Shown one piece after another: positions 4,343 to 54,787 of a stretch of DNA of 64,000 nucleotides. This stretch comes from a virus (Duplodnaviria; Caudoviricetes): IMG/VR virus record IMGVR_UViG_3300028833_003520, one strand, 5' to 3'. Under the pieces are notes generated by a model, which worked only from the letters and a program-made list of their open reading frames with translations, did not search any database and was not told the origin of the DNA. The translations under genes were made by a program, and so were the position numbers. Within the stretch, counting starts at the first letter, position 1. Each line of letters opens with the position of its first letter.

Positions 4343-4355
4343 AATTATGTCTCCT

Positions 4356-4694
4356 TTAAGGTCTGTAAACTACCTGCATTGTTTTGAACCAAGGAAGGCT
4401 CAAAAGGTCGTCAATGGTGATGAATATATTCTCAACATTGGCAAAGTCATACAGGCTTTCTCCGTGATATCCTTTGTAAAATGGGATATATGTATGATTT
4501 GAATTTTTGAGTTCTTCCTCAGTATATCTTTCACATCGGTCTAAACCTGTTGTGTAGCCTCCGAAGGAACGCTTTTCGTTATCTTCGGTAAGGTTACCCC
4601 AAAACAATAAGCAGCCTGGAAATAGACCTTTATGTTTGAAACAAAGGATGACATACTTTCTTTCAGGGTTGATTTTATTAGGTATAATATCCAT
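4356..4694 (-). CDS. Hypothetical protein
   Basis: ORF in operon. Confidence 0.75.
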   Translation of the reverse strand: MDIIPNKINPERKYVILCFKHKGLFPGCLLFWGNLTEDNEKRSFGGYTTGLDRCERYTEEELKNSNHTYIPFYKGYHGESLYDFANVENIFITIDDLLSLPWFKTMQVVYRP

Positions 4695-4696
4695 AG

Positions 4697-5344
4697 TTAT
4701 TTCTCCTCTGAAGGTCTTTCTTCGTATTCACAGGGTTCTTTGAAACTCTTTGTGCAAGTTTCAGTTGGAGCATCTGCGATTGCGGAATGGACGGTGTTGC
4801 AATTCTTACAAGTTTTGCACTTACCTGATTCTTTCATTTCTACCCTTTTACAGAAGTCTTGTATGTATATGTCAGGCACAATATCATCAAGAGTAGATTC
4901 ACTGTTCATTGCAGCAAGACAGAATGGGCAATGGTCATAGTCGTCGAACCTCTTCATTGAATACGAAGTATTGATAATACGACCACAGTTTGTGCATTCA
5001 AACTGCTCAGTATAGCCTCTGCAGTCAGGATTTACAGGTTTCCAAGAACCTGTAGCAACTGATATAGGCGTGAGTTTCATAGGGTGTTTAGACACCTGAA
5101 TTTCATCGCCTGTGTACTTGTGTCGATAGATGACGGCATCTGTCGTTTCAGTGTCGTATTTGTAGTCTTTTGGAATATCAAGAGATATTGTCTGAATGAA
5201 AGTGTTCTCAAGAGTTCCTTCTATTTCAATCATAGGGCAATTCATTGACCTTTGATTGGTGATGGTTAAATCACAGAAGGAACACTTTTGATTAAGAGGA
5301 CACGCTTGACAATTCTCTGGTGTGGGAATGTTAAGTAATAACAT
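4697..5344 (-). CDS. Cys-rich zinc-ribbon protein (phage-type)
   Basis: Multiple CxxC motifs (CQAC, CTNC, CPFC, CKTCKNC). Confidence 0.75.
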   Translation of the reverse strand: MLLLNIPTPENCQACPLNQKCSFCDLTITNQRSMNCPMIEIEGTLENTFIQTISLDIPKDYKYDTETTDAVIYRHKYTGDEIQVSKHPMKLTPISVATGSWKPVNPDCRGYTEQFECTNCGRIINTSYSMKRFDDYDHCPFCLAAMNSESTLDDIVPDIYIQDFCKRVEMKESGKCKTCKNCNTVHSAIADAPTETCTKSFKEPCEYEERPSEEK

Positions 5345-5359
5345 TTGTAGTTCTCCTCA

Positions 5360-5755
5360 TTAGGTTGTGAATGTTTTATCTCCGATACGAAGTTCGTCGT
5401 GGAAAATACGAACAATACCACAATCGTTGATTGGGTCTTTTTCAATGACTTGAAGATTTTGTTTGCCATAAACTCGATGATGCTTCTTGTAGATACTTTT
5501 TGCTTCATCTTCGTTGTGTGCTCTGATGTATTCAGGCTCTTCAGAATAATACTGAATGAAGCCATCAAACTTGGGTTTGGCTACCCAATATAGTTTGATG
5601 TCCTGCGGTTCATTACCCTTCATTTGGATAAGAGGACAATGTTCTGCTATTTTGCTGAAATCTTCGATGAGTTCTTCATTCACTCTGCAGTCAATTCTTG
5701 AAGCGAATCTGCATTCTGCACAGCATTTGGGCATTGCTATATCAATTCCGACCAT
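5360..5755 (-). CDS. Cys-rich hypothetical protein, N-terminus similar to that of 4697-5344
   Basis: MPKCCAEC...HCPLIQ resembles PENCQAC...NCPMIE. Confidence 0.7.
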   Translation of the reverse strand: MVGIDIAMPKCCAECRFASRIDCRVNEELIEDFSKIAEHCPLIQMKGNEPQDIKLYWVAKPKFDGFIQYYSEEPEYIRAHNEDEAKSIYKKHHRVYGKQNLQVIEKDPINDCGIVRIFHDELRIGDKTFTT

Positions 5756-12329: not shown

Positions 12330-12839
12330 TTATGTCTCCTTTGGATTTGATTTTAACACCATACAGAAGTGTTTCTCGTAAGGCGGTAAACAAGGCTGAT
12401 AGGAAGTGGATTCGGTTACAGAGATATAGGCACCGAAGGTTGTGCGTAAGATGAGGTCTATACCGTTAGGAATATCCTCGTCAAAAGAAAGATTGCCTGT
12501 ATCAAGAGGCGTTGCTCCTTTTGTGTGTGATATTGTTAGATGAGCGTTACCTTTTTCGTTAAGTAATTTACGAAGAAGGGCATTCTGCTCTTTTGTTCCG
12601 TCAACAGCATCAAGAAATTCAACGCTAACACCTTCATTCAGACCATTATTCTTGTAACCTGTGACACGAAATCTTGCGTGAAGTCCGTAGAGGTCGGTAT
12701 GAAGGGTTTCAGGCTTAAATGCTACTGTAATATGAGGGTTAGCGACTCTAACAGGGAGCGACTTGCTGATATTACAAGAGGTATCAAGGAAAAACGCTTC
12801 ATAAAGCGTTTTGGTCTGAATAGATGTGGACTTGTACAT
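12330..12839 (-). CDS. 2H phosphoesterase family protein
   Basis: Two HxT motifs (PHITVAF, AHLTIS) ~65 aa apart in a 169-aa protein. Confidence 0.7.
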   Translation of the reverse strand: MYKSTSIQTKTLYEAFFLDTSCNISKSLPVRVANPHITVAFKPETLHTDLYGLHARFRVTGYKNNGLNEGVSVEFLDAVDGTKEQNALLRKLLNEKGNAHLTISHTKGATPLDTGNLSFDEDIPNGIDLILRTTFGAYISVTESTSYQPCLPPYEKHFCMVLKSNPKET

Positions 12840-17915: not shown

Positions 17916-18356
17916 TTATACTACGTTCTCGTTACGGTTCATATTGAAGACGTAAGCGTATGCACGAGAATCATAAGCGATTGCAGGGATTCCCAATCTC
18001 TTTGCAAGAGATTTCGCATAATGATACTGCTTCTGTGAAGGCTTCTTGATAGTATCAAGGACCACGTAGTAGTTGTTCTTATAGTGACGAATGAATCCAG
18101 TCATTTGCTCATCCAAATCGGGATTAGCAAGTTCACTTTTAGGAATCCAGCCAATAATTTTACGAGAATTATGCTCGACTACCTTAATGGCATATTCGTC
18201 TTCATCTGTTTCGGGATTATGATAGATTGTGTCCATCAAATCGGTTGTAATAATGCCACCGCACATAGACGTAGCAAAATTGCGGAGTATATCCTGACGG
18301 TTTTCACCATCTTCGTTTGCGAAGGTAACACCTGCGAGTTTTAGTTCTTTTATCAT
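17916..18356 (-). CDS. HIRAN-domain protein
   Basis: LAGVTF..RQ..NPxxDxxAIKV...IGWIP motifs. Confidence 0.7.
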   Translation of the reverse strand: MIKELKLAGVTFANEDGENRQDILRNFATSMCGGIITTDLMDTIYHNPETDEDEYAIKVVEHNSRKIIGWIPKSELANPDLDEQMTGFIRHYKNNYYVVLDTIKKPSQKQYHYAKSLAKRLGIPAIAYDSRAYAYVFNMNRNENVV

Positions 18357-18560
18357 AGTCGTAATTCCTTTCTTAAAAATTCTATAATGTATTTTTGCTT
18401 CTTATAAACTCGAAAAAAGAGACAAAGAAGTATCAAAGATGCTATTGGAACCGTTAGGTTCTCCTGACAGAACTGTAAACAGTTCTGTCCCCTTTTCATT
18501 AAGGCAAAGTAAGTTCTTTTGTAAAAGAATCTACAGCACTGCAGATAACGCAATGAAAAT

Positions 18561-18596
18561 AAAAAAAAAAAAAAGGCTACCATTACGGTAGCCTTA
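18561..18596 (-). terminator. Intrinsic terminator
   Basis: AAGGCTACC/GGTAGCCTT stem + long U-tract on -. Confidence 0.9.
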
Positions 18597-18615
18597 AAGG
18601 TGTATTCGGAATGAA

Positions 18616-19056
18616 TTAGTAGTCAGCACTACAGTCTTCTGTGTAGTTTTCTACAGATTCTTCTTCAGTATCAGTTGTTTCTGTGTCAGAATCGTCTTCT
18701 GCAGAGTCACAGCGATGAGCACAGTTACTACAATCGCAGTCACATTCAGATTCGAGTTCATCCATATCTATAGGTGGATTGCGAACTTCTTCAGGAAGTG
18801 CCATATACTCTTCCTTCATCTGTCTATAAGCAGAAGCGTCCATCCAAGATGTCTGTCTGGCATCATTCTTAGCCCAGCCTACTTCCTTATCCTTGTAGAA
18901 GAATGTAGCACCTTCTTTTGTGTATTCGATACGGCACATCTTGCGGATGATTGTATTTACAGTACCCCAAGAATCACCTTCGAATTCGTATTTTTCTGCC
19001 TGCTTTGTCTGAATAGCAGAGGGAACGAGTTTAGCGAGATTAGACTTGATAGACAT
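18616..19056 (-). CDS. Hypothetical protein with acidic Cys-rich C-terminus
   Basis: AAAGGAG RBS, monocistronic cassette. Confidence 0.8.
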   Translation of the reverse strand: MSIKSNLAKLVPSAIQTKQAEKYEFEGDSWGTVNTIIRKMCRIEYTKEGATFFYKDKEVGWAKNDARQTSWMDASAYRQMKEEYMALPEEVRNPPIDMDELESECDCDCSNCAHRCDSAEDDSDTETTDTEEESVENYTEDCSADY

Positions 19057-19220
19057 AAGTGTGTCTCCTTTCTATGAATAAAATAATGTATTTTATGAGT
19101 AGAACCCAACCAAGAGTTTCTATCTCAAAGATATCCTGAGCAACCAGGCTGGTTGCCCATTGTCTGACTGCCAAGCGGTCAGACTTTTTGTGTAATCACT
19201 ATGATTATAAAGGGGATATG

Positions 19221-19253
19221 AAAAAAGAAAATGGTGATACAAAAGTATCACCA
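19221..19253 (-). terminator. Intrinsic terminator
   Basis: TGGTGATAC/GTATCACCA stem + U-tract on -. Confidence 0.8.
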
Positions 19254-19556
19254 CTTCTCTTCTTTGATGAGGTCGTACACAATAGGTAAGGCATTGAACT
19301 GCTTAACGAAATCTTCAACGGAAGTAGCCGTAATAGGAGCGTAGCCCTCATTCTTCGGCTTTACTTTAATCTTCCATAAGACATTGGTAATTTCGATACC
19401 TGTTTCTTCAAGATAGTTCTTGATGCCGTCTTCGATACCAAACCAGCACTTACCGTCATCGGTAGTGCTTGTTATGAGTAACTGTGTTGCTTCTTTTGTG
19501 AAGCCTCTCTTCTGAAAGAACTCGTCTTTCTTTGGATATACAAAGCGTGTAACCAT
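19248..19556 (-). CDS. Hypothetical protein
   Basis: AAAGGAG RBS. Confidence 0.75.
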   Translation of the reverse strand: MVTRFVYPKKDEFFQKRGFTKEATQLLITSTTDDGKCWFGIEDGIKNYLEETGIEITNVLWKIKVKPKNEGYAPITATSVEDFVKQFNALPIVYDLIKEEKW

Positions 19557-19566
19557 ATTATTGTGT

Positions 19567-19722
19567 TCACTCCTTTATTTCGTTCTTATTGAAGTTAGGA
19601 ACAACGGTGGGAACTTCGGCTTCAGGCTGAGGTTCAACAACAGGTTCCTCTGCATACATTTCTTCACAGCAGATATCTGTGAAAGGGTCGTAGCAATCAC
19701 CCTGCCAATTGTAGTTAGACAT
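19567..19722 (-). CDS. Small acidic peptide (51 aa, MSNYNWQGDC...)
   Basis: Not in ORF track; GGAGGT RBS, fills the gap. Confidence 0.65.
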   Translation of the reverse strand: MSNYNWQGDCYDPFTDICCEEMYAEEPVVEPQPEAEVPTVVPNFNKNEIKE

Positions 19723-19724
19723 AG

Positions 19725-20201
19725 TTATACCTCCGAAGTGTTCTTGTATTCTGAGATGAACATACCTTCATAATCGTAGATTACGAAATGTGTGGTGGTT
19801 ACACGAAGAATACGAGGATAGTAGCCTAAGTATGACCTGAATTCGTCACACATAAGTTCCTTTTCGTATCTGAATTCTTCGTTAGTTTCGTCGAAGTTAT
19901 ACTTTGCGTATAACGCAGCAATCTTCTTAGGAAACTCTTTCTTGTATGTTGCAACCTTTGCAACTGTAACAGGGTATTCGTTGAGTATCTTAACGATGCC
20001 GTCAAGTGTATCATCTCCGCCTGCGTCAAACGGTGCACCATAGATAAGGAAGAATTCTACATCTTCTTCTTTAGTGATGGTGTTTACCATCTGTGAGCAA
20101 GGTTCGATAGTGAGTGTGTCGTAGCCTGCTTCGACCACGATTGAGTTCCAGTTATTATTGATGAACTGCTTCTTCAGTTCTTCTCTTGTGAAGGTTTCCA
20201 T
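19725..20201 (-). CDS. Hypothetical protein
   Basis: AAAGGAG RBS. Confidence 0.75.
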   Translation of the reverse strand: METFTREELKKQFINNNWNSIVVEAGYDTLTIEPCSQMVNTITKEEDVEFFLIYGAPFDAGGDDTLDGIVKILNEYPVTVAKVATYKKEFPKKIAALYAKYNFDETNEEFRYEKELMCDEFRSYLGYYPRILRVTTTHFVIYDYEGMFISEYKNTSEV

Positions 20202-20224
20202 AGTAATTCTCCTTTCTTAAGGTG

Positions 20225-20593
20225 TTAATCATCAGTGTTATAGTTGTAATTAGGATTTCTGGCATAGCCGTTTATTGCATATAAACGCTTATCAGAAATG
20301 GAACAATTGTTATTTGACGGTTCTTTGTAAGTGATTACATTGTATTTACCGTCATCAGTTTTTTCGCTGATTACGAAATAGTGCGTTTCGTCAACAGCAA
20401 TGTTGATGGTTCCATCGGTGTTGTAGTACGCAAGATAAGGATTGAGGAATGTTTCTCTGATTGTATTGACGAATACACCTCTTTCCTTAATACGAATGAT
20501 TGCGTGCTTTGTTAAGCGGTAGTGATATGCAATATCGTATAAGACTTCCTGTGGTACTAACTGACCGTGTTTCTCAAATAAAGTATCTCCCAT
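20225..20593 (-). CDS. DUF4258-like protein
   Basis: LTKHAIIRIKERG..NVITY pattern; start MGDTL behind GGAAGGA. Confidence 0.55.
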   Translation of the reverse strand: MGDTLFEKHGQLVPQEVLYDIAYHYRLTKHAIIRIKERGVFVNTIRETFLNPYLAYYNTDGTINIAVDETHYFVISEKTDDGKYNVITYKEPSNNNCSISDKRLYAINGYARNPNYNYNTDD

Positions 20594-20722
20594 ATTCGTT
20601 TCCTTCCTATTCATAATGTATTAGAGAATGAAATCTCAAAAATGATTAGGGGCGAACGAACAGCGAGCCAATTTACACGCTTAGAAGGATGATAAGCGTG
20701 CTGTTAATCAGACTTAATTCTT

Positions 20723-20961
20723 AAAAAAAAAAAGCAGACATCTCATACGAGACATCTGCTTCTTTCATAGAAAGGCGGTTTATAGCAATGATAGACGGTG
20801 ATTATGGACATTCTGTCACGTCGCGGCAAAATCCTTATGCCGCCGTGTAAGTTTTCCGACTGTAAGGAGACATATTATGTCAATACTTTTCGATGCGTCG
20901 TTATGGTCAGACATTGGTATTTTCGAGGAACTCGTGTCTATCAGCCACGTAACCTATTTGT
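20723..20961 (-). ncRNA. Candidate sRNA A (two anti-RBS seeds + terminator)
   Basis: Terminator 20723-20760 (G.U pairs only on -); seeds 20763-20782 and 20864-20881; hairpin element 20969-20985 upstream. Confidence 0.6.
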
Positions 20962-21016
20962 TTTATGGATTTCCGTGCAGGAAATTCGTTGGGTAGGGGA
21001 TGTTAACAGTGCAAGT

Positions 21017-21092
21017 AAAAAGAAGAAAGGGCGAGTACGAATGTACTTGCCCGTCTTGAAGAATATATATACAAAGAGAACTCTTATAGATT
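21017..21092 (-). ncRNA. Candidate sRNA B
   Basis: GGGCGAGTAC/GTACTTGCCC stem + U-tract; hairpin element 21101-21115 upstream; no ORF. Confidence 0.5.
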
Positions 21093-21149
21093 CTCCATCT
21101 CTTTCGTGCAGAAAGTTGCTTTTATATCTAAATGGAAAGGTTTTATCCG

Positions 21150-21230
21150 AAAAAAAAAAGATAGCAACGGGCGGAGGAAACCCATTGCTATCTGAAAGGA
21201 GGATGTTTATGAAGAGTTTATTTCAAAAGT
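21150..21230 (-). ncRNA. Candidate sRNA C (CCUCCUUUC seed)
   Basis: Terminator 21150-21192; anti-SD immediately 5' of it; hairpin element 21237-21255 upstream. Confidence 0.6.
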
Positions 21231-21287
21231 TTTCTGGGCGAGTGGGCAATGAGCCAATTTAAGAAAGATATTTAAGTGTAATAGGAG

Positions 21288-21359
21288 AAAAAAAATAGGC
21301 ACTCCCCGAAGGGAATGCCTATCTTAAAATACATTATAGAAAGGAGGAATACTAAACTT
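21288..21359 (-). ncRNA. Candidate sRNA D (CCUCCUUUCUAUAAUGUAUUUUA seed)
   Basis: UUCG-capped terminator 21288-21322 on -; seed 21325-21347; hairpin element 21367-21383 upstream. Confidence 0.65.
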
Positions 21360-21464
21360 CTTATGGATTTTTGAACAGAAAATTGAGGTAAGGGTTTAAC
21401 GTCATCTGTAAAGATGACTTTCTTTTGGGCGTAACCAAAAGAAAACGGAAAGAACTTCACGCAG

Positions 21465-21562
21465 AAAAAAAAACAGGTATGCCGAATGGCATACCTGCGA
21501 AACACACATAAATTTTTCGTTAAGAATAGTCTAAGCACTACGAGCATTGTGTTTACACAGGT
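21465..21562 (-). ncRNA. Candidate sRNA E
   Basis: CAGGTATGCC/GGCATACCTG terminator + U-tract; hairpin element 21570-21586 upstream; no anti-SD. Confidence 0.5.
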
Positions 21563-21612
21563 CTTATGGATTTCCGTACAGGAAATACGTTTTAAGGAAC
21601 GGCAGTTTTGTG

Positions 21613-21641
21613 TTGACATTCTCCATATATGGCGTTATACT
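21613..21641 (+). promoter_or_regulatory. Sigma-A promoter of PcfJ-like gene
   Basis: TTGACA-17-TATACT. Confidence 0.8.
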
Positions 21642-21686
21642 GATTTTAAGTTGAAAAACTCTGTTTTTGTAAGGAGATTTATAGAT

Positions 21687-23966
21687 ATGAAACAATCAGT
21701 TTCTATTCCACTTAAGTCATTAAGGGAAGATAAAAAGTCAACCTTCACAGTAGATACTGTGAACGGAATTTGTGGTTGTGCCGATTGTAGAAAAACATAT
21801 CGAGCAACAAAAGAAGATACTTGGAGAGGTAATCGTTATAAGATGGACACACCGTGTCCTGATTGTGGTGGCAAGCAACTTTCAAGTTCACTTCTTTCTG
21901 ACCTTCCGATTGATACAACTGCGAAGACAAGAGCAAAGAAGAAGATGGCAATTAAGAAGGATATTAAGCAAGATGTATATCGTAGCGATGATGATAAGTT
22001 ACAGAGAGTAACGACCGTTAGTACCTACGATGTATTTACTATTTACCCTTCTAATCGTATGCATTCACAGACAATTGAATGTACATTCACGGCTGATATG
22101 GATGCAGGTACTATGCAGTGTTCTTATATGGATGTTACTGATAAGGAGCATCCTGTTCCGATTGGTATGTATGACCTCGATTCACAGTATGCGAACGGTT
22201 ACAATCAGTTCAATGGTCTTGAAGTAATGAATGCGAACTCGATTAGAAAGTATCAGACGAAAGGTGGTTACGAAAGGTCTATTGTACCTTTTGTAAATTC
22301 ACTGAAATATACATCTGATTCTTTTGGTAATAATGTCGTGTCGAAGAACTTGGCAACAACGATAGCAAATGAGTTTGATATTGAAGTTGACCAAGGTAAT
22401 GAGTCTCGTAGGATGGCAATGGTTGACTTTATGGTACGATATCCAGGTTTGAGAGATATGGTGCTTGAGCACGTAAACGAGAACCTTTCGTACAAGCAGG
22501 ATTTGACCGACCGAGAGAAGAGATTAGAGAGAACTAAGGAAGTCAACAAGTATGTTAAGCAAATGTCTAATGTTGACCAAAAACTCCTTGCTGACTTGAG
22601 ACAGTGTAAGACTGGTGATGAAGCCTATAGTTATCTCAGTCGAGTTACTTTCGGTAAGGAAGCAGACGGTTCAAAGATTAAGGATTCTTTCATCAGTCGT
22701 GTTAACATTGATGAGGCTTCCTTTGACGGTTATGGTATTCATAAGAAGATAAGGAAGAATTTTAATCAGAATCCTCTTGGAACTGCTAATTTCGTATATA
22801 CGACAATCGGTAAGATTGGCTTTAGAGATGTAAACCATCTTTATCAGATGCTTGACCTTATGGAAAGTCAGAAGACATCTGATGACGATTGGTATCATAA
22901 TAAGAAGGCATTCAACGGTGATACCATTACTCCGATTGAGAAGAAGTCTCAGTTACGTTTTATTAAGACTTATGCGAAGTCGCACACACCTGGTCAGACA
23001 ATCAAGGATTGGTATGAGAATAAAGGTAATTATGAGATGTTCAGCGATTGTGCAGATATGTACAATAAGATGTGTGAAGTTGGATATGTCTGTGCGACGC
23101 AAGCAGAATGCGATATAGCGTCTGCTGAAGATGCCAAGCGTAAGATTAAAGGTTTGATGGACGAAGGTATGGATAAAGATGCTATCGTCGAAGCAGTCGA
23201 GCCTTACTGGGCAGTTAATGGTGATACATCCGTAGCAACAACATTGGTCGAAAAGACTATCGAAGATATCAAGGTCAATGGTGTTGAAGAGAAGGTTGCC
23301 TTCTATGGTAGAGATGGTAAGCCGTTGATTTCGAATCGTACTCCGCAGGAAATTCACGATGAGTTGTCCAGGAAGAATCGTACTATTCAGGAACTCTCTG
23401 GTGGTCCGAAGAGAGCAGGATATACGAAGGAGATTAGAGATAGGTTTAATCTTGATATTGGCGATTATAAGTTCAGAATACCGAAGAATACTTATGAGGT
23501 AATCAGAACTGGTGAGCAGATGCAGATTTGTGTCGGTGGTTCAGGCTACTGTAATTCAGTACAGAGAGGAGACCCTCACTGTATTATCGTGACTATGGCT
23601 GATAAGGCTGGTCAGAAGGTAGGCTGTATTGAGATTAACAACGATAATATCAAGCAGTTTAAGTCGCCTCGTAACCACGCAATCTGCGATGAAAGATGCG
23701 GTAAAGGAGCCGTAGATGCAGCGAAGGAGTTTATCGAGAAAGCGAAATTAAATGACTCTTGTGAAGATGTACGTCATTTCTGTGATGAAAATTATGCACC
23801 ATATGGTGATGGAGATTTCACTCAGGCTCATCTTCCTTCGAATCCTTATCCGAGTCCTCGTGTTATGATGGCATATTTCAAGGGTGATTTAGGGAAGAAT
23901 AACCGCAAATTACCTGAAGTGCCTGTAGCACAAGCACAGGCTGAATCACAACAGTCTTTGGAGTAA
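21687..23966 (+). CDS. PcfJ-like domain protein with N-terminal Zn ribbon (759 aa)
   Basis: EIHDELS..FRIPKNTYEVIRTGEQMQICVG..Y..IEI..IKQFK..RN PcfJ-type C-terminus; CxxC pairs; start MKQSV behind AAGGAG and promoter. Confidence 0.75.
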   Translation: MKQSVSIPLKSLREDKKSTFTVDTVNGICGCADCRKTYRATKEDTWRGNRYKMDTPCPDCGGKQLSSSLLSDLPIDTTAKTRAKKKMAIKKDIKQDVYRSDDDKLQRVTTVSTYDVFTIYPSNRMHSQTIECTFTADMDAGTMQCSYMDVTDKEHPVPIGMYDLDSQYANGYNQFNGLEVMNANSIRKYQTKGGYERSIVPFVNSLKYTSDSFGNNVVSKNLATTIANEFDIEVDQGNESRRMAMVDFMVRYPGLRDMVLEHVNENLSYKQDLTDREKRLERTKEVNKYVKQMSNVDQKLLADLRQCKTGDEAYSYLSRVTFGKEADGSKIKDSFISRVNIDEASFDGYGIHKKIRKNFNQNPLGTANFVYTTIGKIGFRDVNHLYQMLDLMESQKTSDDDWYHNKKAFNGDTITPIEKKSQLRFIKTYAKSHTPGQTIKDWYENKGNYEMFSDCADMYNKMCEVGYVCATQAECDIASAEDAKRKIKGLMDEGMDKDAIVEAVEPYWAVNGDTSVATTLVEKTIEDIKVNGVEEKVAFYGRDGKPLISNRTPQEIHDELSRKNRTIQELSGGPKRAGYTKEIRDRFNLDIGDYKFRIPKNTYEVIRTGEQMQICVGGSGYCNSVQRGDPHCIIVTMADKAGQKVGCIEINNDNIKQFKSPRNHAICDERCGKGAVDAAKEFIEKAKLNDSCEDVRHFCDENYAPYGDGDFTQAHLPSNPYPSPRVMMAYFKGDLGKNNRKLPEVPVAQAQAESQQSLE

Positions 23967-23990
23967 TAAGGTAACGAAATTACGAAATAA

Positions 23991-24018
23991 AAATAGCCTG
24001 CTTTATGCAGGCTATTTC
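23991..24018. terminator. Bidirectional terminator between convergent genes
   Basis: AAATAGCCTGC/GCAGGCTATTT. Confidence 0.85.
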
Positions 24019-24042
24019 TTTGTAAGATTGTTTATAGAACGA

Positions 24043-24402
24043 TTAGCGAGGTTTATTTTGCCAATAGTTGTAGTTCTCGATGGCTCTTATGATTTCATAA
24101 GGGTCGAGGGAGTGTTCTGTGCCGCTAACAATACGTCTTCTGCCGATTTCATCGGTGAAGTGCTGACAGCACTTGATAGCCGTTCCTTGTAACATACCCT
24201 CGATTTTGTTATTGTATGCGTCAAACCAAAATATTTGGTTGGGTCGAACAAGGAAACTTTCCCAAGGTTTATCGGGAGATGTCATAAAATCGAGAGGTGG
24301 GACCATAATCTCAATCCACTCACCTGAATCGTTCTCAATCAAGTAACAAAGTTCCATCGGAACTCTGATAGATATGTGTGCATCTTTTTGTCCTCTGTAC
24401 AT
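24043..24402 (-). CDS. Hypothetical protein
   Basis: Start MYRGQ behind AAAGGGGAG. Confidence 0.65.
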   Translation of the reverse strand: MYRGQKDAHISIRVPMELCYLIENDSGEWIEIMVPPLDFMTSPDKPWESFLVRPNQIFWFDAYNNKIEGMLQGTAIKCCQHFTDEIGRRRIVSGTEHSLDPYEIIRAIENYNYWQNKPR

Positions 24403-24489
24403 ATAGACTCCCCTTTCTTTAATAGGCTCGTTATTCATTTTTGGTACGTATGCCGAGAAAAATTTTCTACGGTTAGTATAGCACAAATA

Positions 24490-26560
24490 TACTGATAAAT
24501 GAACAGAAAGTTTTGCTTTTTGGTAGTTGAGCGATAGCGTCGATGAGACTCGTGCTGGTCTGTTGCTGGTAAGCAGGCAGTTTCCTGCCTGGCTAAAACT
24601 TGGATACTGTTGCGGATACTTTGATGCAGTTTTTGCAAAGGCAAGTGCTGCGAAGTTGCTGCGGTTGGCAGCGAAATATTAAGTTATGTTCCGCCTGTCC
24701 CTGAATGTGATAAATCCCTGAGCATTGGAAGTAGCCCTTTCTTCTTGACGGGGTTGGATTTAGGCGTAAAGTTGCAGAAGGGTTCACACCTCACTTTTTT
24801 CTTGCTTCCGCCGTTACCCGAAGGTCGAGTTCCTCTTCTTTACCGTTTACCCAGAAGGTTCCCAGAACAGCCTCTCCTCTCCAGTTAGACTGATGGTTCT
24901 GATTCTCTCAAGCGTCGCAAAATTCTATAACAATATAGACCAAAAACGGAAAACGCATTCCATCAAATCGTAAATTTGTGTGTAAGATTTCTTAAAGGAA
25001 GACATAGACTAAAGAGACAACGAATTCGAGGGACTTGTCGTGAGAATGAGTGGCTTCTGCCTGATAAGAAATGAAGCCTTTCTTAAAGAAGAATATTCTT
25101 TGCCCTTAAAATGTGGTGATTTTTGGGAGAAACCACCCTTTTTGAAAGTATTTTAAGGGAAAAGGCAAGTGTAACGAAAATTGTATAAGTTTCGTGACAA
25201 AGAATTATTGTCTAACTACGATTTTATCGTGACTTTAGGAATGCCGCCGAGATGCAATGTGGTTAATCTATATAGTTTTCAGCATTTTGACAACCTTAAA
25301 TGTGATTACTAAAAGCAACGAAATACGGTGCAACCAATTTCATTGATTAAACTTGTTGGTCTTACTCTATGATTTCATCATTGTTGTGCCCTGCGTTTGC
25401 GGAGCGTAGAACCAAATTTCGCAGGAAATGAAGGGTTCTATTTTGTCTAAAGATGTTGAAGGTGAGGGTTTCTCACTTTGCGATAAAGATAGCAATAGTG
25501 GGGTTGAGCCAAGACATCGTTTAACTGTTGTTCTGATTACGATTTAATCGTCCGTTGCAAGAGCCAAGAGGGTCGAGGGAATTGGTATTCCCTAATTAGT
25601 CTTATCTTGTTTTCATTATTCGTGACAATTTCACGATGAACGACATCCAACCGCCTTGACGCGGTAAAGGATGGAAGTCTAATTTGTTGAACCTTTCGTG
25701 ATTTAGAAAGGTCTATATTTTTCTGCGAAGACACTAACAAATTTTGGAGCAACTTCTGCAACGATACACGCAGTTACAGAAGGGGAAACGAAAAAAAAAA
25801 GATTAAGGATGTTGACAAGTTTATCTTGGTGACCTCACAAGAAAAAAAATAGGAATATACAGACTTTAGTGTCTGCACATTCCTATAGTAAAAAAAAAAA
25901 ATGGACATCTCGATTAAGAGATATCCATCTTTTCTCCGAAAAGGAGCATAACAGAAAAAACATCACAAGTGATTTTGAGTCGGGTACACCGACTTGTTGG
26001 TGCTCCTCAAACCGTAGAGGTTTGAATTTTCGTGAGAAAATGGAGCCGCCAGGAATTGCGACATTAAGGAGCAAATCCAAGCGAAAATCCGATGAATATA
26101 AAGTGGTTAAAAGATAAGCGATGTGCTGGTGGTGGAAGTAGTGAATCAAAAATTCGCTGTAGAGGATTTTGAGGCTTAATAAAGCCGATAGCATTACAAA
26201 GAATAATGCGAAAAAAAAGGTAAAAGGATTTACGTGTCCAGCACTTTATGTGCTGAAAAGGAGATGAAAGTTAAGTATGTTTTGTTGAGTATAAACGAAG
26301 CAAAAATAATTAACTTTTAGCGGAATGACAAAGTAGCACGGACCAAGAGGTTGTGAATTGTGTCCGAGCGTAAATATAATGTCAGTATGTTAATCCAAAG
26401 GCTTACTGCCGTATTGTTATTTTAAGGCTGATAGCCGATTAAACTACAAGATTAGTTTGCAAAGTTTTGTTGTAAGTGTTCGACAGTTTATCTGTCGCTT
26501 CGCAAGAGTTCATCGTCTGCTCATTAAACTTTTTTTGTTAGTTTTTCACCAATGTTTAAT
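24490..26560. other. ~2-kb non-coding, hairpin-rich region (candidate origin / regulatory hub)
   Basis: No credible ORF; many stem-loops; tandem minus-strand terminators at 25842-25928. Confidence 0.5.
25890..25970 (-). ncRNA. Candidate sRNA F (antisense to RBS of gene 29237)
   Basis: Terminator 25890-25928; seed 25940-25956; CACAAGT box and AGTCGG-GTACA-CCGACT hairpin upstream. Confidence 0.65.
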
Positions 26561-26586
26561 GGTGTTAAGAAGGTAACAGAATAAAG

Positions 26587-26622
26587 AAAAAAAAAAGAAG
26601 GACAGTCAAATGACTGTCCTTC
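26587..26622 (-). terminator. ssb terminator
   Basis: GAAGGACAGTCA/TGACTGTCCTTC + U-tract. Confidence 0.9.
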
Positions 26623-26649
26623 ATAAGTTTATTCAATTGTAGAGAGCGA

Positions 26650-27060
26650 TTAGCCCTTTGCAGGAGCCTCTGCAGCCTTAGCAGCCTCTTCAGCCTTACG
26701 CTGAGCACGAGCCTCTGTAACTGCCTTTGTCTCAAGCAACTCGATAGAGTCGATTCTGCAAACCTGTCCATAGACCTGCTCGCCAGAAGTCTTGTCTGTG
26801 TAGTTGTTGCTCTTGAGGTGATAGCCGATTGCTACGAGGTCGCCTTCGTGCATAAGTCCGTAAACGCCGTCCTGCTTATCTGCAGGTACGAAACCTTCGA
26901 GACTTACGAACTCAGTTGTCGTGTTGCCCTGAGCGTCCTTGTAGTTATTGGGAACTGCGAGTGTTACCATCATCTTGCGAGAACCGTCGCCATTCTGAAA
27001 TGCTGCAACAGCCTTTGAAAGTCTTCCGATAACGATTCCTGAATTCTGTGCGTTTGCCAT
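26650..27060 (-). CDS. ssb: Single-stranded DNA-binding protein (no acidic C-terminal tip)
   Basis: OB-fold SSB motifs IGRL..TLAV..T.FV...GDLV.I...L.SNNY; AAAGGTGG RBS. Confidence 0.8.
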   Translation of the reverse strand: MANAQNSGIVIGRLSKAVAAFQNGDGSRKMMVTLAVPNNYKDAQGNTTTEFVSLEGFVPADKQDGVYGLMHEGDLVAIGYHLKSNNYTDKTSGEQVYGQVCRIDSIELLETKAVTEARAQRKAEEAAKAAEAPAKG

Positions 27061-27388
27061 AGTCAAACCACCTTTCTCCCTTTAGGGACATTAGAATAAT
27101 TTTTGAGTTATACTCACAAGTATTGTCTATATCCGTGCAGGATATTTATTTGAGAGTGGATTCGTTCCACTTATTGCGTCAGCAATTACTTATGAGAGAA
27201 AACTCACTTATCTTCCGAAGACAGTCGAACAGACTGGCTCATTGGAAAAACATATAAACTTTATCATAAATGAGGAGAAACCGTCAAGAAAAAGGTATCT
27301 ATATTAGTATATATACTATAATTATTATGGTATTTTTATGTGTATTAAAAATGTAATAAAAAATACTTATTAAATGTTGAAAAAAGTG

Positions 27389-27417
27389 TTGACATCTGCT
27401 TTTTTATCCCTTATAAT
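27389..27417 (+). promoter_or_regulatory. Consensus sigma-A promoter of partition operon
   Basis: TTGACA-17-TATAAT after a very AT-rich tract. Confidence 0.9.
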
Positions 27418-27438
27418 TACGATGTAATCATTAAAAAA

Positions 27439-27454
27439 TGCTCATATATGAGCA
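27439..27454. promoter_or_regulatory. Palindromic operator TGCTCATATATGAGCA
   Basis: Perfect 16-bp palindrome; variants at 21620, 27261, 44474, 52483, 61687, 61716, 62336, all in or beside promoters. Confidence 0.7.
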
Positions 27455-27471
27455 GAAAGGAGTACAAGTAA

Positions 27472-27933
27472 ATGGCAAATGAGAAAGCAGATGGCACACC
27501 GAAGAGATTAGGTAAAAACGGCAAGCCTTTAGGTCGTCCTACCTATGCCTCACAGGGAAAGAAGAAAAAGTCTGAAACTCAGACAACTTGGAAAATTGAT
27601 GTTCCGAATGGCGATATTTCAACGAATGAGTTCTTGAGGATTCAGGATAATCCATCACTTTCTGTAAGAACGATTATTCGAGAATATATCGAGAGAAATG
27701 GAATGGTCGATGCAACTTGTCAGCCTGTTGAGTACCGTCCTGTAGGGCGTAACGCAAGTGCAAAGAGGGAGCAAGCCGAAGCAGCGAACAGTCCCGAACC
27801 AAAATTCGAAGCAGAGAATGAACCAATTATTCAGAGAGAAACAGTTAGAACACCGATTTCTCAACCCACCGATGAAGATGATGACGATGCTATCGTTGCA
27901 AATATCTTCAGCAAAAATAAGAACAAGTCATAA
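27472..27933 (+). CDS. Probable partition adaptor / DNA-binding protein (ParR-like)
   Basis: Small gene co-transcribed with parM; basic N-terminus, acidic tail. Confidence 0.55.
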   Translation: MANEKADGTPKRLGKNGKPLGRPTYASQGKKKKSETQTTWKIDVPNGDISTNEFLRIQDNPSLSVRTIIREYIERNGMVDATCQPVEYRPVGRNASAKREQAEAANSPEPKFEAENEPIIQRETVRTPISQPTDEDDDDAIVANIFSKNKNKS

Positions 27934-27947
27934 AGGAGACAAAAATT

Positions 27948-29165
27948 ATGAAATTTGTAGTTGCAGGACTTGATGTAGGCAACGGTTATGTAAAGGGTGC
28001 CATCAAAGTCGATAATGAAGTAGAAAATGTATTTATTCCTTCTTGTGCTATGAAGGTAAAGAACACAGGTAACATTCTTCCTGTTGAGGGTGAGTCAGCA
28101 ATCAAGGAAGTCGTAACCAATATTTTTGATTATCTTGATGTTTCTTTTGATTCGAAGATGATTGAAGACGGAAGACGCAGATTTGTAGGTACTCGTGCAG
28201 TATCTATGGGTGACTACGGAATGGACGTTTTCAAGATTTCTGGAAACATCAGTAAGGCAAAGCAGGAACTCTCTCCTGTGCTTGTATTTACAAGCATTGC
28301 AGGTGTTGTACTCAAGAAAGAGTTCGAGAAGACAGGCAGACTTCCTGAAGAGATTGAATGCCACGTTTCATTGGCAGTCGCTCTTCCGATTGATGAGTAT
28401 AAGGATTATAGAGCAGAATATAAGGCATCTTATAAGAACACTTCTCACGTTGTAAGCATCAATAACTTCTTAACACCTGTTCGTATTAAGATTGTTATTG
28501 ATAACGTAATCGTCGGAGCAGAAGGTGCTTCAGCACAGTATGCGATTACTGAGTACGGAGAACCGTTGTACAATGCTATGCTTAAGACGGCTCGCAAGTA
28601 CGGTGCAGAGTTGAAAGGACTTGAAGCAAGGCATCTTGCCAATATCGTTAATACCGTAGGTATTGACATTGGCGAAGGAACAGTAAACTTTCCTGTATTC
28701 ACGAATGGTCAGTTTAATACTGATATTTCAACAACTGTGAATATGGGATATGGTACAGTTCTTCAGGAGTCTTTGGCGATGCTCAGAAAGTCAGGTCACG
28801 TTTTTAAGGGTGGTCGTAAGGAACTCGCAGAGTACCTTAAGAACCCTCCTGCAGAGGACGATTACTTCTACGAAGATTATAAGGAAGTAGTTCGTATCGT
28901 GGATGACCAGGCAGACACATTGGTTAACGAAATCGTTAATCATCTGACAGATATCCTCGGCTCGAATGTGCAGGTAGCATACGTCTATGGCGGTGGTGCC
29001 GCACCTATGAGAGAAATCCTTTACCCGAAACTCATTGAGGCTACAAGACCTTATGCTGGTGTTAAAGCCGATTATCCGATTCTCTATCTCGGTAATGAGT
29101 ATTCTCAGAACTTGAATAGAGAGGGTCTCTACATTATGGCAGACTCCTATAAGCCCGTTAAGTAA
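27948..29165 (+). CDS. parM: ParM/StbA family actin-like partition ATPase
   Basis: GLDVGNGYVK, AEG, IDIGEGTVN and YGGGA actin-fold motifs. Confidence 0.9.
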   Translation: MKFVVAGLDVGNGYVKGAIKVDNEVENVFIPSCAMKVKNTGNILPVEGESAIKEVVTNIFDYLDVSFDSKMIEDGRRRFVGTRAVSMGDYGMDVFKISGNISKAKQELSPVLVFTSIAGVVLKKEFEKTGRLPEEIECHVSLAVALPIDEYKDYRAEYKASYKNTSHVVSINNFLTPVRIKIVIDNVIVGAEGASAQYAITEYGEPLYNAMLKTARKYGAELKGLEARHLANIVNTVGIDIGEGTVNFPVFTNGQFNTDISTTVNMGYGTVLQESLAMLRKSGHVFKGGRKELAEYLKNPPAEDDYFYEDYKEVVRIVDDQADTLVNEIVNHLTDILGSNVQVAYVYGGGAAPMREILYPKLIEATRPYAGVKADYPILYLGNEYSQNLNREGLYIMADSYKPVK

Positions 29166-29236
29166 TTTACGAGAGGTAAGGTCGAGTCTTTAAGGCTCGA
29201 CCATTCCTCAAGGCTTTTTGAAAGGAGCGTAACAGA

Positions 29237-29740
29237 ATGTATGTTGGAGATGATGGTCGTGTCGAGATTTTGCATATAAAATCTGATGATACGTTTTTAG
29301 TAAAATTTAGCGATTTACCTTTCGATTTGTTTCCTGAGTTTAAGGAAAATGTAGCACGGTTTGAAGATAGTCAATTTGCTATTTTATCGAAAGAGCAAAT
29401 GCGTCTTATTTGCGGAGCAATCAGTCTTTGTAAAACAATAGGTGTAAGCGAAGCAAATAATGTTATATCTGAATGTCGAGTGAATGCTATGCGTGAGCGA
29501 GATGATGAGGATAGGAAACTCGCAAAAGAATTTGCTTTAGAGCGAGATAGAGCCGAATGGCAGCGATTAAATGCTATTTTCGGTAAGAATGAAGAAGCAA
29601 AGCCTGAACAGAAAACCGAAGAAACGGTTGTTACAGAGAATAGAGAATTTCCCTATGGAGAGATTAAGGTGAATCCTTATGATGAACCTCCGAAAATCAA
29701 TCCATACGGCGATAATTTTTCGATATTACCAAGCCAATAA
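29237..29740 (+). CDS. Hypothetical protein
   Basis: AAAGGAG RBS. Confidence 0.75.
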   Translation: MYVGDDGRVEILHIKSDDTFLVKFSDLPFDLFPEFKENVARFEDSQFAILSKEQMRLICGAISLCKTIGVSEANNVISECRVNAMRERDDEDRKLAKEFALERDRAEWQRLNAIFGKNEEAKPEQKTEETVVTENREFPYGEIKVNPYDEPPKINPYGDNFSILPSQ

Positions 29741-33096: not shown

Positions 33097-33127
33097 CAAA
33101 AGTGGGCTGAATGACCGAACAGGTCAT
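33097..33127 (-). promoter_or_regulatory. CAAAAGT-N7-hairpin(GAACA) element heading the RNase H operon
   Basis: CAAAAGT GGGCTGA ATGACC GAACA GGTCAT; same geometry as copies at 21.2, 21.6, 26.0 and 27.1 kb. Confidence 0.65.
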
Positions 33128-33193
33128 TTATTGCCTTTTTATAGTGCAATATTACCAAATACGTTATGCAAAATAACGGTTCTATAAAATATG

Positions 33194-52618: not shown

Positions 52619-54787
52619 ATGATAGGTATTCTTAACGAAAAACCTTCCCAAATGCGTAACTTTGAGAAAGCATTAGGTGGCAATCGTGGCAAGTTCAATG
52701 GCGAAGATTATGTACTTGTAGCAGCGAGAGGTCACTTATATGAGTACGTTGACCCTGACAAGCAGGTTTCTCCTGCTCTTGCTGAACAGTACCACGCTTG
52801 GGACTTGAAGTATCTTCCTTGGGACGAAAAACAGTTTGCTTGGAAGAGAGAGAAGAAACCAGATACAGCATCCACTTTGAAGACCATCAAAGATGTACTT
52901 TCAAAATGTGATGAGATTTGTATCGCAACCGACGATGACCCTACGGGTGAAGGAGAGTTGCTTGCTTGGGAGATTCTTGATGAATTGAATTTACGACCTA
53001 AGAAGTGGTCTCGTATGTATTTTGAAGACGAAGCCGAGAGTTCTATTCAAGCGGCGTTTAAGAAGAGAAAGACAATTCCTTCGATGGACGAAGATATGGA
53101 CTACGTTAAGGCGAAGTATAGAAGCCAGTGGGATTTTATGTCTATGCAGTGGACTCGTATTGCTACAAGGTTTGGTGATGGAAGAACTGTACTTCGTCAG
53201 GGCAGACTTAAATCGGCAATGGTACTTATCGTAGGCGATGGACTCAAAGCCTACAATGAGTATAAGAAGGTTCCTTCTTACCAAAACAGATTTAAGGATG
53301 AAAATGGCAATATCTTTACGAGTAAAGATGAGCCTATTTTCCCGAAGGCAACCGATGTACCGAAGACTTATCACGATTCTGATGTAATCGTAGATAGCAA
53401 GGAAATGCGTTCTTCGGCTCCACCGAAGTTAATCGACCTTTCTACATTATCTTCAATGCTTGCAGGAAAGGGTGTTAAAGCAAAAGATGTCCTTGCGGTA
53501 TATCAGAAGATGTACGAGGCTCAGGTTGTATCTTATCCGAGAACCGAGGATAAGTGCATAACCAAAGAACAGTTCGACCAGTTGCTTCCGAAGATTGACG
53601 CTATCGCTAAACTTGTTGGTGTCGATACGAAGTTACTTACTCATAGAGCACCTCGTAAGACTCATATTAAGGACGGTATGGCACACGGTGCTAACAGACC
53701 TGGACTTAATGTACCGAAGTCAATGGACGATTTGGATAGGTTCGGTTCTTGTGCAAGGGATATTTACACTATTCTTGCAAGAAACTATCTCGCAATGCTT
53801 GGCGAGGATTATGAGTATGAGTTCCAGAAAGGTCATCTGAAGGATTATCCTGCATTCATAGGAACGGCTTCTGTTCCGAAGAAGATGGGTTATAAAGCAA
53901 TTTTCTCTGATATGGATGACGAGGAAGATACGAGCAAAGGTCTTGGAACAAGAGCAAAGCCGTATGTTCACGAGATTATCCCTCCGAGACCTCCGTACCC
54001 TACAATGAAGTGGCTTATGAAGCAACTTGAGAAGTATGATGTAGGTACGGGTGCTACGAGAACAAGCACGTATGCAGAGGTAACGAATGCTAAGTCGAAG
54101 ACAGCCTTGATGTCAGAGTCAAAGGGTAAGATTTCATTTACTCTTTGTGGCGAAATGAGTTATAAATTGCTGCCTGGAACGAATATCGGTGACCTTAAGA
54201 TTACCGAAAAAGTAATGGCTGATATGAAAGCCATTTCACAAGGTAAGGCGAATCTGAACGAATGTCTGAAAGATATACAGCGTATGGTTCGTGAAGATAT
54301 AGAAACTATGAAATCCAATAGTGCGACAATGAGAAAGGAGTTAGGCGTTATGGATAATTCACAGAAGGAGAAGTACACAGGTACTTGGAATGGCAAAGAG
54401 GTCTCATTCAACAAGGAGTGGAGTGGACACAAGTTTACGGATGCAGAGTGCGAGAAACTCTGTAATGGCGAAGTAATTGAGATTACGGCTGTCTCTAAAA
54501 AGACAGGTAAGCCTTTTACAGTTAAGGGTGCTCTTGCAGAAGATACTTACAATGGTAACCCCTTTGTCGGTTTCAAGCCTGACTTCAATAGTGGTAGCGT
54601 ACCTGCAGAGTGGTGCAAGCACAAGTTCACAGAGGATGAGAAAATCCTTCTTGAACAGGGCAAGATTGTCGAGGCAGATGACTTCGTAGGTAAGAAGGGA
54701 ACTGCATTTACCACAAGGGTTCGCTACGGTGAAAAGAAGGACGGTAGCAAGGGTATTATCCCTGAATTCGATAAAGAGAACTTCTAA
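52619..54787 (+). CDS. topB: Type IA DNA topoisomerase (plasmid Topo III-like) with C-terminal repeats
   Basis: NEKPS, GHL, ATDxDxxGE TOPRIM; GRLKS; SYPRT catalytic Tyr; GTGATR. Confidence 0.9.
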   Translation: MIGILNEKPSQMRNFEKALGGNRGKFNGEDYVLVAARGHLYEYVDPDKQVSPALAEQYHAWDLKYLPWDEKQFAWKREKKPDTASTLKTIKDVLSKCDEICIATDDDPTGEGELLAWEILDELNLRPKKWSRMYFEDEAESSIQAAFKKRKTIPSMDEDMDYVKAKYRSQWDFMSMQWTRIATRFGDGRTVLRQGRLKSAMVLIVGDGLKAYNEYKKVPSYQNRFKDENGNIFTSKDEPIFPKATDVPKTYHDSDVIVDSKEMRSSAPPKLIDLSTLSSMLAGKGVKAKDVLAVYQKMYEAQVVSYPRTEDKCITKEQFDQLLPKIDAIAKLVGVDTKLLTHRAPRKTHIKDGMAHGANRPGLNVPKSMDDLDRFGSCARDIYTILARNYLAMLGEDYEYEFQKGHLKDYPAFIGTASVPKKMGYKAIFSDMDDEEDTSKGLGTRAKPYVHEIIPPRPPYPTMKWLMKQLEKYDVGTGATRTSTYAEVTNAKSKTALMSESKGKISFTLCGEMSYKLLPGTNIGDLKITEKVMADMKAISQGKANLNECLKDIQRMVREDIETMKSNSATMRKELGVMDNSQKEKYTGTWNGKEVSFNKEWSGHKFTDAECEKLCNGEVIEITAVSKKTGKPFTVKGALAEDTYNGNPFVGFKPDFNSGSVPAEWCKHKFTEDEKILLEQGKIVEADDFVGKKGTAFTTRVRYGEKKDGSKGIIPEFDKENF

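Follow-up and report, generated by a model that had tools for sequence, protein, structure and literature searches.

The closest described counterparts of the locus reported here are two groups of small RNAs (sRNAs) of Firmicutes, together with structured elements and RNAs of conjugative plasmids. The locus is a 0.86-kilobase (kb) array at positions 20723-21586 of a 64,000-nucleotide (nt) stretch of DNA (IMG/VR virus record IMGVR_UViG_3300028833_003520; the whole stretch is called the window below, and coordinates refer to it unless stated otherwise), which is part of a large mobile element of rumen Firmicutes. It consists of five consecutive minus-strand units, A to E, and a sixth unit, F, lies at 25890-25994. 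The LhrC1-5 RNAs of Listeria monocytogenes are produced from tandem sRNA genes with their own promoters and intrinsic terminators, and their CU-rich motifs pair with AG-rich ribosome-binding sites (RBSs) (PMC4132741, PMC5880928). The csRNAs of streptococci (ccnA-E) are short and partly tandem, and their unpaired parts are complementary to the Shine-Dalgarno (SD) sequence and AUG, with additive effects on initiation (PMC3091779, PMC4507080). As tandem sRNAs with CU-rich anti-SD motifs are known from LhrC1-5 (PMC4132741) and the csRNAs (PMC3091779), the statement in the initial annotation of the array that it was not a described system was too strong.

The array resembles LhrC in one particular respect. 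In LhrC, CU-rich motifs occupy both single-stranded stretches and the terminator loop, and exactly these two positions are used in unit C, with CAUAAACAUCCUCCUUUC at 21194-21211 (minus strand) and an additional UUCCUCC in its terminator loop. The former sequence reads as anti-AUG plus anti-SD, in which unit C is also similar to the csRNAs. However, LhrC copies are close sequence siblings, chromosomal and controlled by LisRK, whereas the units described here lie on a conjugative-type element, gave no Rfam match to LhrC and have largely unlike bodies, with two pairs of partial siblings: the 3′ modules of A and F are 70% identical, and C and D are 59% identical, both containing UCCUCCUUUC and AGAUAG. 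The csRNAs, in turn, are defined by a CiaR-dependent promoter with a TTTAAG direct repeat and by a conserved two-hairpin body, neither of which is present here; no CiaR box (TTTAAG-N5-TTTAAG) was found on either strand of 20615-21686, and there was no csRNA match in Rfam.

A second comparison concerns the pLS20 plasmid family, in which the establishment genes are mosaic and arranged in many small operons preceded by EGeRS1 and EGeRS2 repeats, and whose described regulators are limited to protein repressors and to long structured sequences upstream (PMC8708921, where Frpo of F and ColIb-P9 is also cited). The window is similar to these Gram-positive conjugative plasmids in that several of its small establishment-type operons are headed by a repeated element that forms a structure. 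However, EGeRS1 is a GC-rich sequence of 325-500 base pairs (bp) without a constitutive promoter and Frpo is a long imperfect hairpin, whereas the heads in the window are hairpins of 15-17 nt beside -10-like boxes and are active in steady state, and none of the EGeRS or Frpo systems contains protein-free units. In enterococcal pheromone plasmids carrying pcf-type genes, Anti-Q of pCF10 and mD of pAD1 are abundant RNAs of 100-200 nt located by the conjugation control region, and both are transcribed counter to an operon leader, which they attenuate. By contrast, RNA A, the transcript of unit A, lies about 670 nt upstream of the promoter of the pcfJ-like gene (hereafter pcfJ) and overlaps no detected sense transcript.

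Unit A gives rise to a discrete, stable, very abundant, conserved and highly structured non-coding RNA of ~220 nt. We read the spacer that holds the array as a bank of small non-coding anti-RBS regulator genes, and assign to this reading a probability of about 45%. Since tandem anti-SD small-RNA loci are known (LhrC, csRNA, CcsR), what is new is that the bodies are unlike each other, that the locus lies on a conjugative-type element beside establishment-type cassettes and that the seeds are apparently leader-derived.

RNA A, an abundant and structured non-coding RNA

Contigs of four rumen metatranscriptomes (X4, X8, X19 and X20, from four studies of sheep or cattle rumen) were placed on 18000-27200. 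A 222-nt contig of X20 corresponded to 20726-20946, with one end inside the U-tract, and an X19 contig covered 20779-20940, while adapter-flanked 127-nt inserts were obtained from X4 (20801/20809-20927) and X8 (20805-20931). The upper ends of these contigs, 20946, 20940, 20931 and 20927, all lie at least 23 nt below the head hairpin of the unit (20969-20985, minus strand; ATTTCC-TGCAC-GGAAAT, followed by CCATAAAAC). RNA A was placed at 20724-20955 on the minus strand (~220-230 nt), with its 5′ end near 20946-20955 and its 3′ end in the U-tract at 20724-20733. Terminator A (20723-20759, with the hairpin at 20759-20734) has an 11-bp stem and an 11-T tract, and its stability is -15.5 kcal/mol on the minus strand versus -11.7 kcal/mol on the plus strand. 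The strand of RNA A was inferred from this terminator and both contig ends; it was not callable from the contigs themselves, where X4 and X8 disagreed in their Read 1 and Read 2 adapter ends, also at genes known to be on the minus strand.

The bin depth at unit A was 5244 in X4, compared with 44-112 in the neighbouring mRNAs, and 315 in X8, compared with 3-11, and RNA A reached 20-100 times the abundance of these mRNAs. No substitution was found in 383 nt of the RNA A contigs of X19 and X20, where about 9 would be expected; the flanking genes in the same two samples differed from the window at 66 of 2854 positions (2.3%). These results showed that RNA A is under strong purifying selection. Folding of RNA A gave a z-score of -5.0 and revealed a multi-branched body, a long 5′-3′ closing helix and an unpaired CCGCCUUUCUAU linker, which is followed by the terminator. 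Two stretches of RNA A are considered as seeds below: seed 1 (20763-20782, minus strand; CCGCCUUUCUAUGAAA) forms the linker between closing helix and terminator and is unpaired in the minimum-free-energy fold, and seed 2 (20860-20872, minus strand; UAUGUCUCCUUACA) lies inside RNA A. An Rfam search of 18000-28000 (cmscan, E<=1) returned four hits at chance level, none of which was relevant.

The initial annotation had predicted discrete minus-strand RNAs from all six units, with a size of ~240 nt for that of unit A. For A, a discrete RNA close to that size was confirmed. The bins 21070-21376 and 25368-26595 had zero depth in all four metatranscriptomes, and no contig was placed over B-F, for which RNAs of 55-80 nt are predicted; this result is uninformative, because it comes from assembled contigs and libraries that would lose RNAs of that length.

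Units, terminators and head hairpins of the array

The array is located inside a divergent spacer of 1.07 kb (20615-21686), from which the genes left of 20614 are read leftward and pcfJ rightward, and at which both the GC and the AT skew switch. Long open reading frames (ORFs) extend over the array (154 amino acids on the plus strand, 115 on the minus strand) and read straight through the terminators; neither these nor the small ORFs of the array had a match in Pfam. All the following units are read on the minus strand. Unit B (21012-21115) consists of a head at 21101-21115, a TATAAG box at 21083-21088 and a terminator at 21052-21029, the weakest of the array, with a T-rich tail down to 21016. 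Unit C (21150-21261) has an imperfect head at 21237-21261, a TTTG-N2-ATAAAC box and a terminator at 21192-21160. Unit D (21285-21383) contains an A/T head hairpin at 21367-21383 with CCATAAGA, a seed at 21322-21348 and a terminator at 21321-21296, and unit E (21465-21586) contains a head at 21570-21586, again with CCATAAGA, a TGTG box, a body of ~75 nt and a terminator at 21497-21474. Unit F, which spans 25850-25994 when both its terminators are counted, has a head at 25978-25994, a TGTG box, a seed at 25936-25957 and a tandem pair of terminators, F1 (25927-25902) and F2 (25885-25850). A stretch of the unit E body (21522-21537, minus strand) is identical over 16 nt to codons 3-8 of the topoisomerase gene (52627-52642, plus strand); as a pairing site it was ruled out, the two sequences being in the same sense, and it may be a chance match or a relic.

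The terminators of C, D and E came from a terminator scan, which placed them at 21193-21159, 21325-21292 and 21498-21473, respectively, with stems of 11-15 bp and 8-10 T, and those of A and F were added by a stricter scan. Units A, C, D and E and both terminators of F, with stems of 10-15 bp and tracts of 8-12 T, classify as having intrinsic (Rho-independent) terminators; B is weak. The region 19500-26500 contained 13 terminator-like sites, compared with 4.4 ± 2.6 in shuffled sequences, and nearly all strong terminators that the stricter scan found in the 64-kb window fall within 17.9-31.1 kb of its minus strand. The terminator scans, the heads and the lack of Pfam matches bore out the picture drawn by the initial annotation, that of five consecutive minus-strand units and F, with intrinsic terminators and no credible ORF. 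It had also claimed that mismatches in the hairpins of A, C, D and F fix the RNA strand. This was upheld, as the A, C, D, F1 and F2 hairpins were 3.4-8 kcal/mol more stable when folded as minus-strand RNA. The hairpin of E is strand-neutral, and the stem of B, read by eye, has an A.C mismatch on the minus strand that turns into a G.U pair on the plus strand.

The head hairpins have stems of 5-7 bp that differ from each other and a TGYWC loop that is kept. Seven of them were found in the window (20969-20985, 21101-21115, 21570-21586, 25978-25994, 27129-27145, 27222-27236 and 33110-33128), invariably between genes and on the minus strand, and the heads of units C and D are weaker variants. Further head hairpins, belonging to cassette genes, were observed at 18447-18463 and 19138-19158. 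The RNA-contig 5′ ends of these cassette genes, 18422 and 19116 (the latter in two runs, one with an adapter), sit 25 nt and 22 nt below their own head hairpins, and the RNA A contig ends 23 nt below its head. Since the RNA 5′ ends of A and of two cassette genes lie at matching distances, the heads appear to act as promoter-associated elements. The boxes 3′ of the heads (TTTG/TGTG-N2-hexamer or CATAAG/TATAAG) may be weak extended -10 elements, although they fit the observed RNA 5′ ends imprecisely. Two other roles were considered for the head hairpins and dropped, as the RNA 5′ ends lie downstream of the hairpins: nut-like antitermination sites, for which no N-like context was seen, and solitary mimics of CRISPR repeats, for which there was no cas context. 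Transcripts of ssb extend to 27182-27185, which places the hairpin 27129-27145 inside the ssb transcript, and the depth of the ssb leader was up to ~2800 in steady-state rumen samples.

Complementarity to gene leaders and competing explanations

Anti-SD strings are present in unit A (CCGCCTTTC), in units C and D (CCTCCTTTC) and in unit F (GCTCCTTTTC), 0-20 nt 5′ of the terminator stems, as the initial annotation had stated. Anti-SD 5-mers occur 11 times on the minus strand of the array and not at all on the plus strand, compared with 3.2 ± 2.1 in shuffled sequences, of which 1 in 500 equalled the observed result. The anti-SD cores adjoin four of the seven orphan terminators (A, C, D and F1; not B, E and F2), and the terminators that follow genes are preceded by at most a weak resemblance of the CCTTT type.

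We propose that each unit would be transcribed and terminated independently on the minus strand, and that B-E and F, 4.5 kb away, would yield RNAs in which a short 5′ single-stranded stretch leads directly into the terminator hairpin. The CU-rich anti-SD core just 5′ of the terminator would be the pairing site of A, C, D and F, and in A, D and F the pairing would reach 5-10 nt beyond the core into leaders that are common to several cassette genes of the element. By pairing with ribosome-binding regions, the RNAs would block translation initiation, as do the LhrC- and csRNA-type regulators of Firmicutes. New units may arise when a fragment of an RBS or leader is copied in antisense orientation into the promoter-terminator frame, presumably with fast turnover.

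The leaders of genes 17838, 19056 and 12839 contain stretches of 12-13 nt that are complementary to seed 1 of A. Seed 2 has 11-nt matches to the RBSs at 12331-12341 and 4346-4356 and a 10-nt match to the pcfJ RBS. For unit D, the longest run (16 nt) is with the leader of gene 18356; the leader of gene 19056 gives two shorter ones (13 and 11 nt) and gene 20614 one of 10 nt. The pairing of unit F with the gene 29237 RBS extends over 17-18 nt and includes one G.U. When the SD core was fixed and the flanks were shuffled, the longest contiguous runs were reached in 1 of 200 shuffles for A seed 1, in none of 200 for D and in 4 of 200 for F (with G.U pairs). In terms of duplex energy, only F was better than SD-preserving shuffles (2 of 150).

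A number of results weigh against this proposal. Units B and E have no anti-SD; the contiguous runs of A seed 2, B, C and E do not rise above those of SD-preserving shuffles, and unit C has no target in the window by the run-length test. The duplex energies of A, B, C, D and E were no better than those of SD-preserving shuffles; the extra pairs are A/U-rich and add little energy. The large structured body of RNA A would be superfluous for a simple regulator made of a seed and a terminator. The candidate targets at 18616-19056 and the ssb leader are abundant at the RNA level alongside RNA A, which is compatible with control of translation. On the supporting side, the plus strand of the array has 22 11-mers in common with 7 of the 71 gene leaders, against 1.8 ± 2.2 in shuffled sequences and 1 for the opposite strand; however, real leaders have 11-mers in common with 1.24 other genes each, as often as the array, so that a plus strand made of inverted RBS copies explains the complementarity equally well. 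Three plus-strand segments retain an ATG 6-9 nt past the SD, which points to an origin from real gene starts and is silent on present selection for pairing. Judged by its sequence, the plus strand appears to behave like four or five genuine leaders written backwards, and such an origin cannot be separated from selection for pairing.

Comparison with relatives adds to both sides. The spacer comparison rests on L001, the sole relative with an assembled spacer, whose PcfJ is 54-56% identical to that of the window. At the same position L001 has an unrelated gene-free gap of 1.7 kb with at least four strong orphan minus-strand terminators, and the anti-SD 5-mers of this gap are again all on the minus strand (8 versus 0; not significant against shuffles). 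The array of L001 showed no significant complementarity to the 26 leaders tested, which also counts against the anti-RBS bank. A unit of L001 matches 11 nt of its own pcfJ RBS (TCAAAAAGGAG), and seed 2 of A in the window matches 10 nt of its own, different one (TGTAAGGAGA), which may be a weak hint of co-variation. What is kept of the spacer region in L001 (93%) and in a further relative, L006 (88%), is the pcfJ promoter at 21606-21648 only, conserved at 88-93% where the PcfJ proteins of the relatives are 36-54% identical. Rfam returned nothing relevant on all of L001. As a separate observation, positions 7240-7880 of L001 (minus strand) form an ORF-free, G+C-richer stretch of ~650 nt that ends at a strong terminator (7209-7179); it had no Rfam match and may be a large non-coding RNA.

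In L003, a relative with 96% identity, unit F is unchanged except for changes in the terminator loop, and the F2 terminator has a stem rebuilt through multiple compensatory changes, its 14-bp hairpin being kept. The RBS of gene 29237, the best target of F, carries 3 changes in L003 while the F seed is unchanged, which is a further point against pairing. These 3 substitutions fall within 12 nt (window 29221-29237 versus L003 8120-8148) of otherwise ~97% identical sequence, a local hot spot. Next to the ssb terminator (window ~26600), L003 also has an inserted DUF488 gene cassette (4988-5490) that is complete, brings its own leader and comes with a duplicated terminator; the gain or loss of cassettes at terminators is thus seen directly. 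Contigs break at the array borders, which fits a hypervariable spacer: those of several independent assemblies and lineages have their first base 55-63 nt upstream of pcfJ, and another breaks off 50 nt short of the gene of a 129-residue protein that neighbours the array. The contigs of the more distant PcfJ relatives P0007, P0009 and P0010 lack the array or begin no further than 55-63 nt upstream of the gene; among the relatives of the 129-residue neighbour, the context is a different one (L007) or the contig breaks off 50 nt short of the array (L008). PcfJ-based locus searches found nothing in GTDB genomes and IMG/VR and one short contig in JGI metagenomes; the conserved pcfJ promoter had no match in genome contigs, nor did an exact look-up of the 129-residue protein return one.

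Taken against these data, the interpretation of the initial annotation, a bank of trans-acting anti-RBS RNAs, is partly supported, its role being plausible and unproven. Complementarity beyond the SD core was found for A seed 1, D and F by run length and for F by energy, and was not found for A seed 2, B, C and E; among these, B, C and E had already been described as lacking a clear target in the window. The comparison with relatives that it had called for revealed a completely different array in L001 and retention of F in L003, without co-conservation of seed and target.

The main rival explanation, which we regard as rather unlikely, is that only unit A is functional, not necessarily through RBS pairing (as a structured RNA it could bind a protein or have a regulatory role), and that the rest are terminators and decayed fragments of inverted cassettes, which would insulate the leftward operon and the pcfJ promoter against stray transcription where cassettes come and go constantly. 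It accommodates the RNA contigs over A alone, the likeness of the plus-strand segments to true RBS-plus-ATG relics, the cassette turnover seen directly in L003, the contigs that begin 55-63 nt upstream of pcfJ as at a hypervariable boundary, the failure of the energy tests (F excepted) to beat the null and the lack of spacer conservation in L001. However, a pure insulator would not need the promoter-type head that every terminator has, and the anti-SD cores adjoin four of the seven orphan terminators and, weak resemblances aside, no gene-following ones. Moreover, the complete strand bias of the anti-SD recurs in L001, and if the segments were leftovers of gene starts, one would not expect all of them to point away from the local promoter.

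It is improbable that the RNAs act on other genomes, namely host mRNAs or the conserved leaders of incoming relatives, as a means of RNA-based exclusion or counter-defence. Such targets would explain the fast turnover and the lack of a target in the window for B, C and E, and they are in line with the complete difference of the array between relatives, the breaks of assemblies at its borders, the leader motif AAATACATT... that is common to this element and L001, and the anti-defence genes, e.g., Tad8, carried by relatives; against them, the best matches found are the element's own genes.

We consider it very unlikely that the plus strand encodes tiny proteins (20, 39 and 17 residues) behind good SDs, with the minus-strand RNAs as cis-antisense partners, for example of type I toxin-antitoxin kind. 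The three plus-strand SD-like sequences with an ATG at 6-9 nt (an estimated ~1% chance for three out of five) favour this explanation, and RNA A overlaps two of these starts. However, the peptides are not hydrophobic (best 15-residue window 1.19; grand average of hydropathy -0.53, 0.75 and -0.40, respectively) and gave no hit in Pfam, a usable ATG is missing from D and F, the 39-residue ORF enters the head hairpin and extends past the point where the RNA contig ends, nothing on the plus strand of the array makes a convincing promoter or terminator, and the small ORFs of L001 are unrelated, one of them being merely ATG-stop.

Least probable of all are sso- or Frpo-like priming or single-strand signals that function on entry of the element as single-stranded DNA, with the short RNAs priming the complementary strand: the shared polarity of all units with the neighbouring cassette genes (ssb, RNase H family), the head stems that differ around a kept loop, as for a folded strand, and the nearby SSB, RNase H and topoisomerase genes would suit them, but head stems of 5-7 bp are too short to recreate a -35/-10 duplex in the manner of Frpo, the array contains no CS-6 motif (TAGCG(T/A) loop) such as that of ssoA, efficient intrinsic terminators and anti-SD cores would be left unexplained, and the abundance of RNA A and of the hairpin-headed ssb and cassette transcripts in steady state, when the element is double-stranded, argues against promoters that work only as single strands.

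Surroundings of the array and implications

The right-hand border of the array is formed by the sigma-70-type promoter of the divergent pcfJ-like gene (21613-21641, plus strand; TTGACA-17-TATACT), whose spacer contains the palindrome CCATATATGG. A similar palindrome, GCTCATATATGAGC, was observed at 27440-27470, directly 5′ of the SD of gene 27472 and upstream of the actin-like partition gene, and the two palindromes are a candidate shared operator. The window encodes a PcfJ-like protein (21687-23966, plus strand), SSB (26650-27066, minus strand), an actin-like partition ATPase (27948-29165, plus strand), a sortase, a type IA topoisomerase and a surface-type protein of 3517 residues, as well as three tRNA-type genes. 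Between pcfJ and ssb, ~2 kb (24500-26600) have no convincing genes and almost no RNA contig cover and are 96% conserved in L003 (2782-5021); this stretch may serve as an origin or transfer origin or encode a large RNA.

Sheep gut (rumen) metagenomes contain 99-100% of the sampled sequence words of the window, and many sheep and cattle runs contain parts of it; in several DNA runs 43-59% of the words were present, a word look-up that does not localise the variable part. A blastn search of the window against PLSDB plasmids and INPHARED phages gave no match. The contigs of relatives span 65-408 kb, by which the whole element would measure about 400 kb. On the 408-kb scaffold L007, a homologue with 60% identity to the 129-residue neighbour stands beside Thg1-like, Tad8-like and pentapeptide genes; relatives in this element family may thus reach very large sizes and carry many counter-defence genes.

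Control of establishment ("leading") genes in Gram-positive conjugative elements is poorly understood. If the anti-RBS bank is real, a set of sRNAs directed at RBSs would be a new layer of control for plasmid establishment and possibly for competition between plasmids. In a further-reaching version, which seems quite unlikely, a fast-evolving antisense library expressed constitutively from the resident copy would silence shared establishment leaders, both those of the element's own entry genes after establishment and those of incoming relatives; such a library, if true, would amount to RNA-based immunity or exclusion for conjugative elements, with host mRNAs as further targets of the units that have no target in the window. 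Whatever the mechanism, RNA A is among the most abundant transcripts of a mobile element that is widespread in the rumen of sheep and cattle, and it belongs to no Rfam family.

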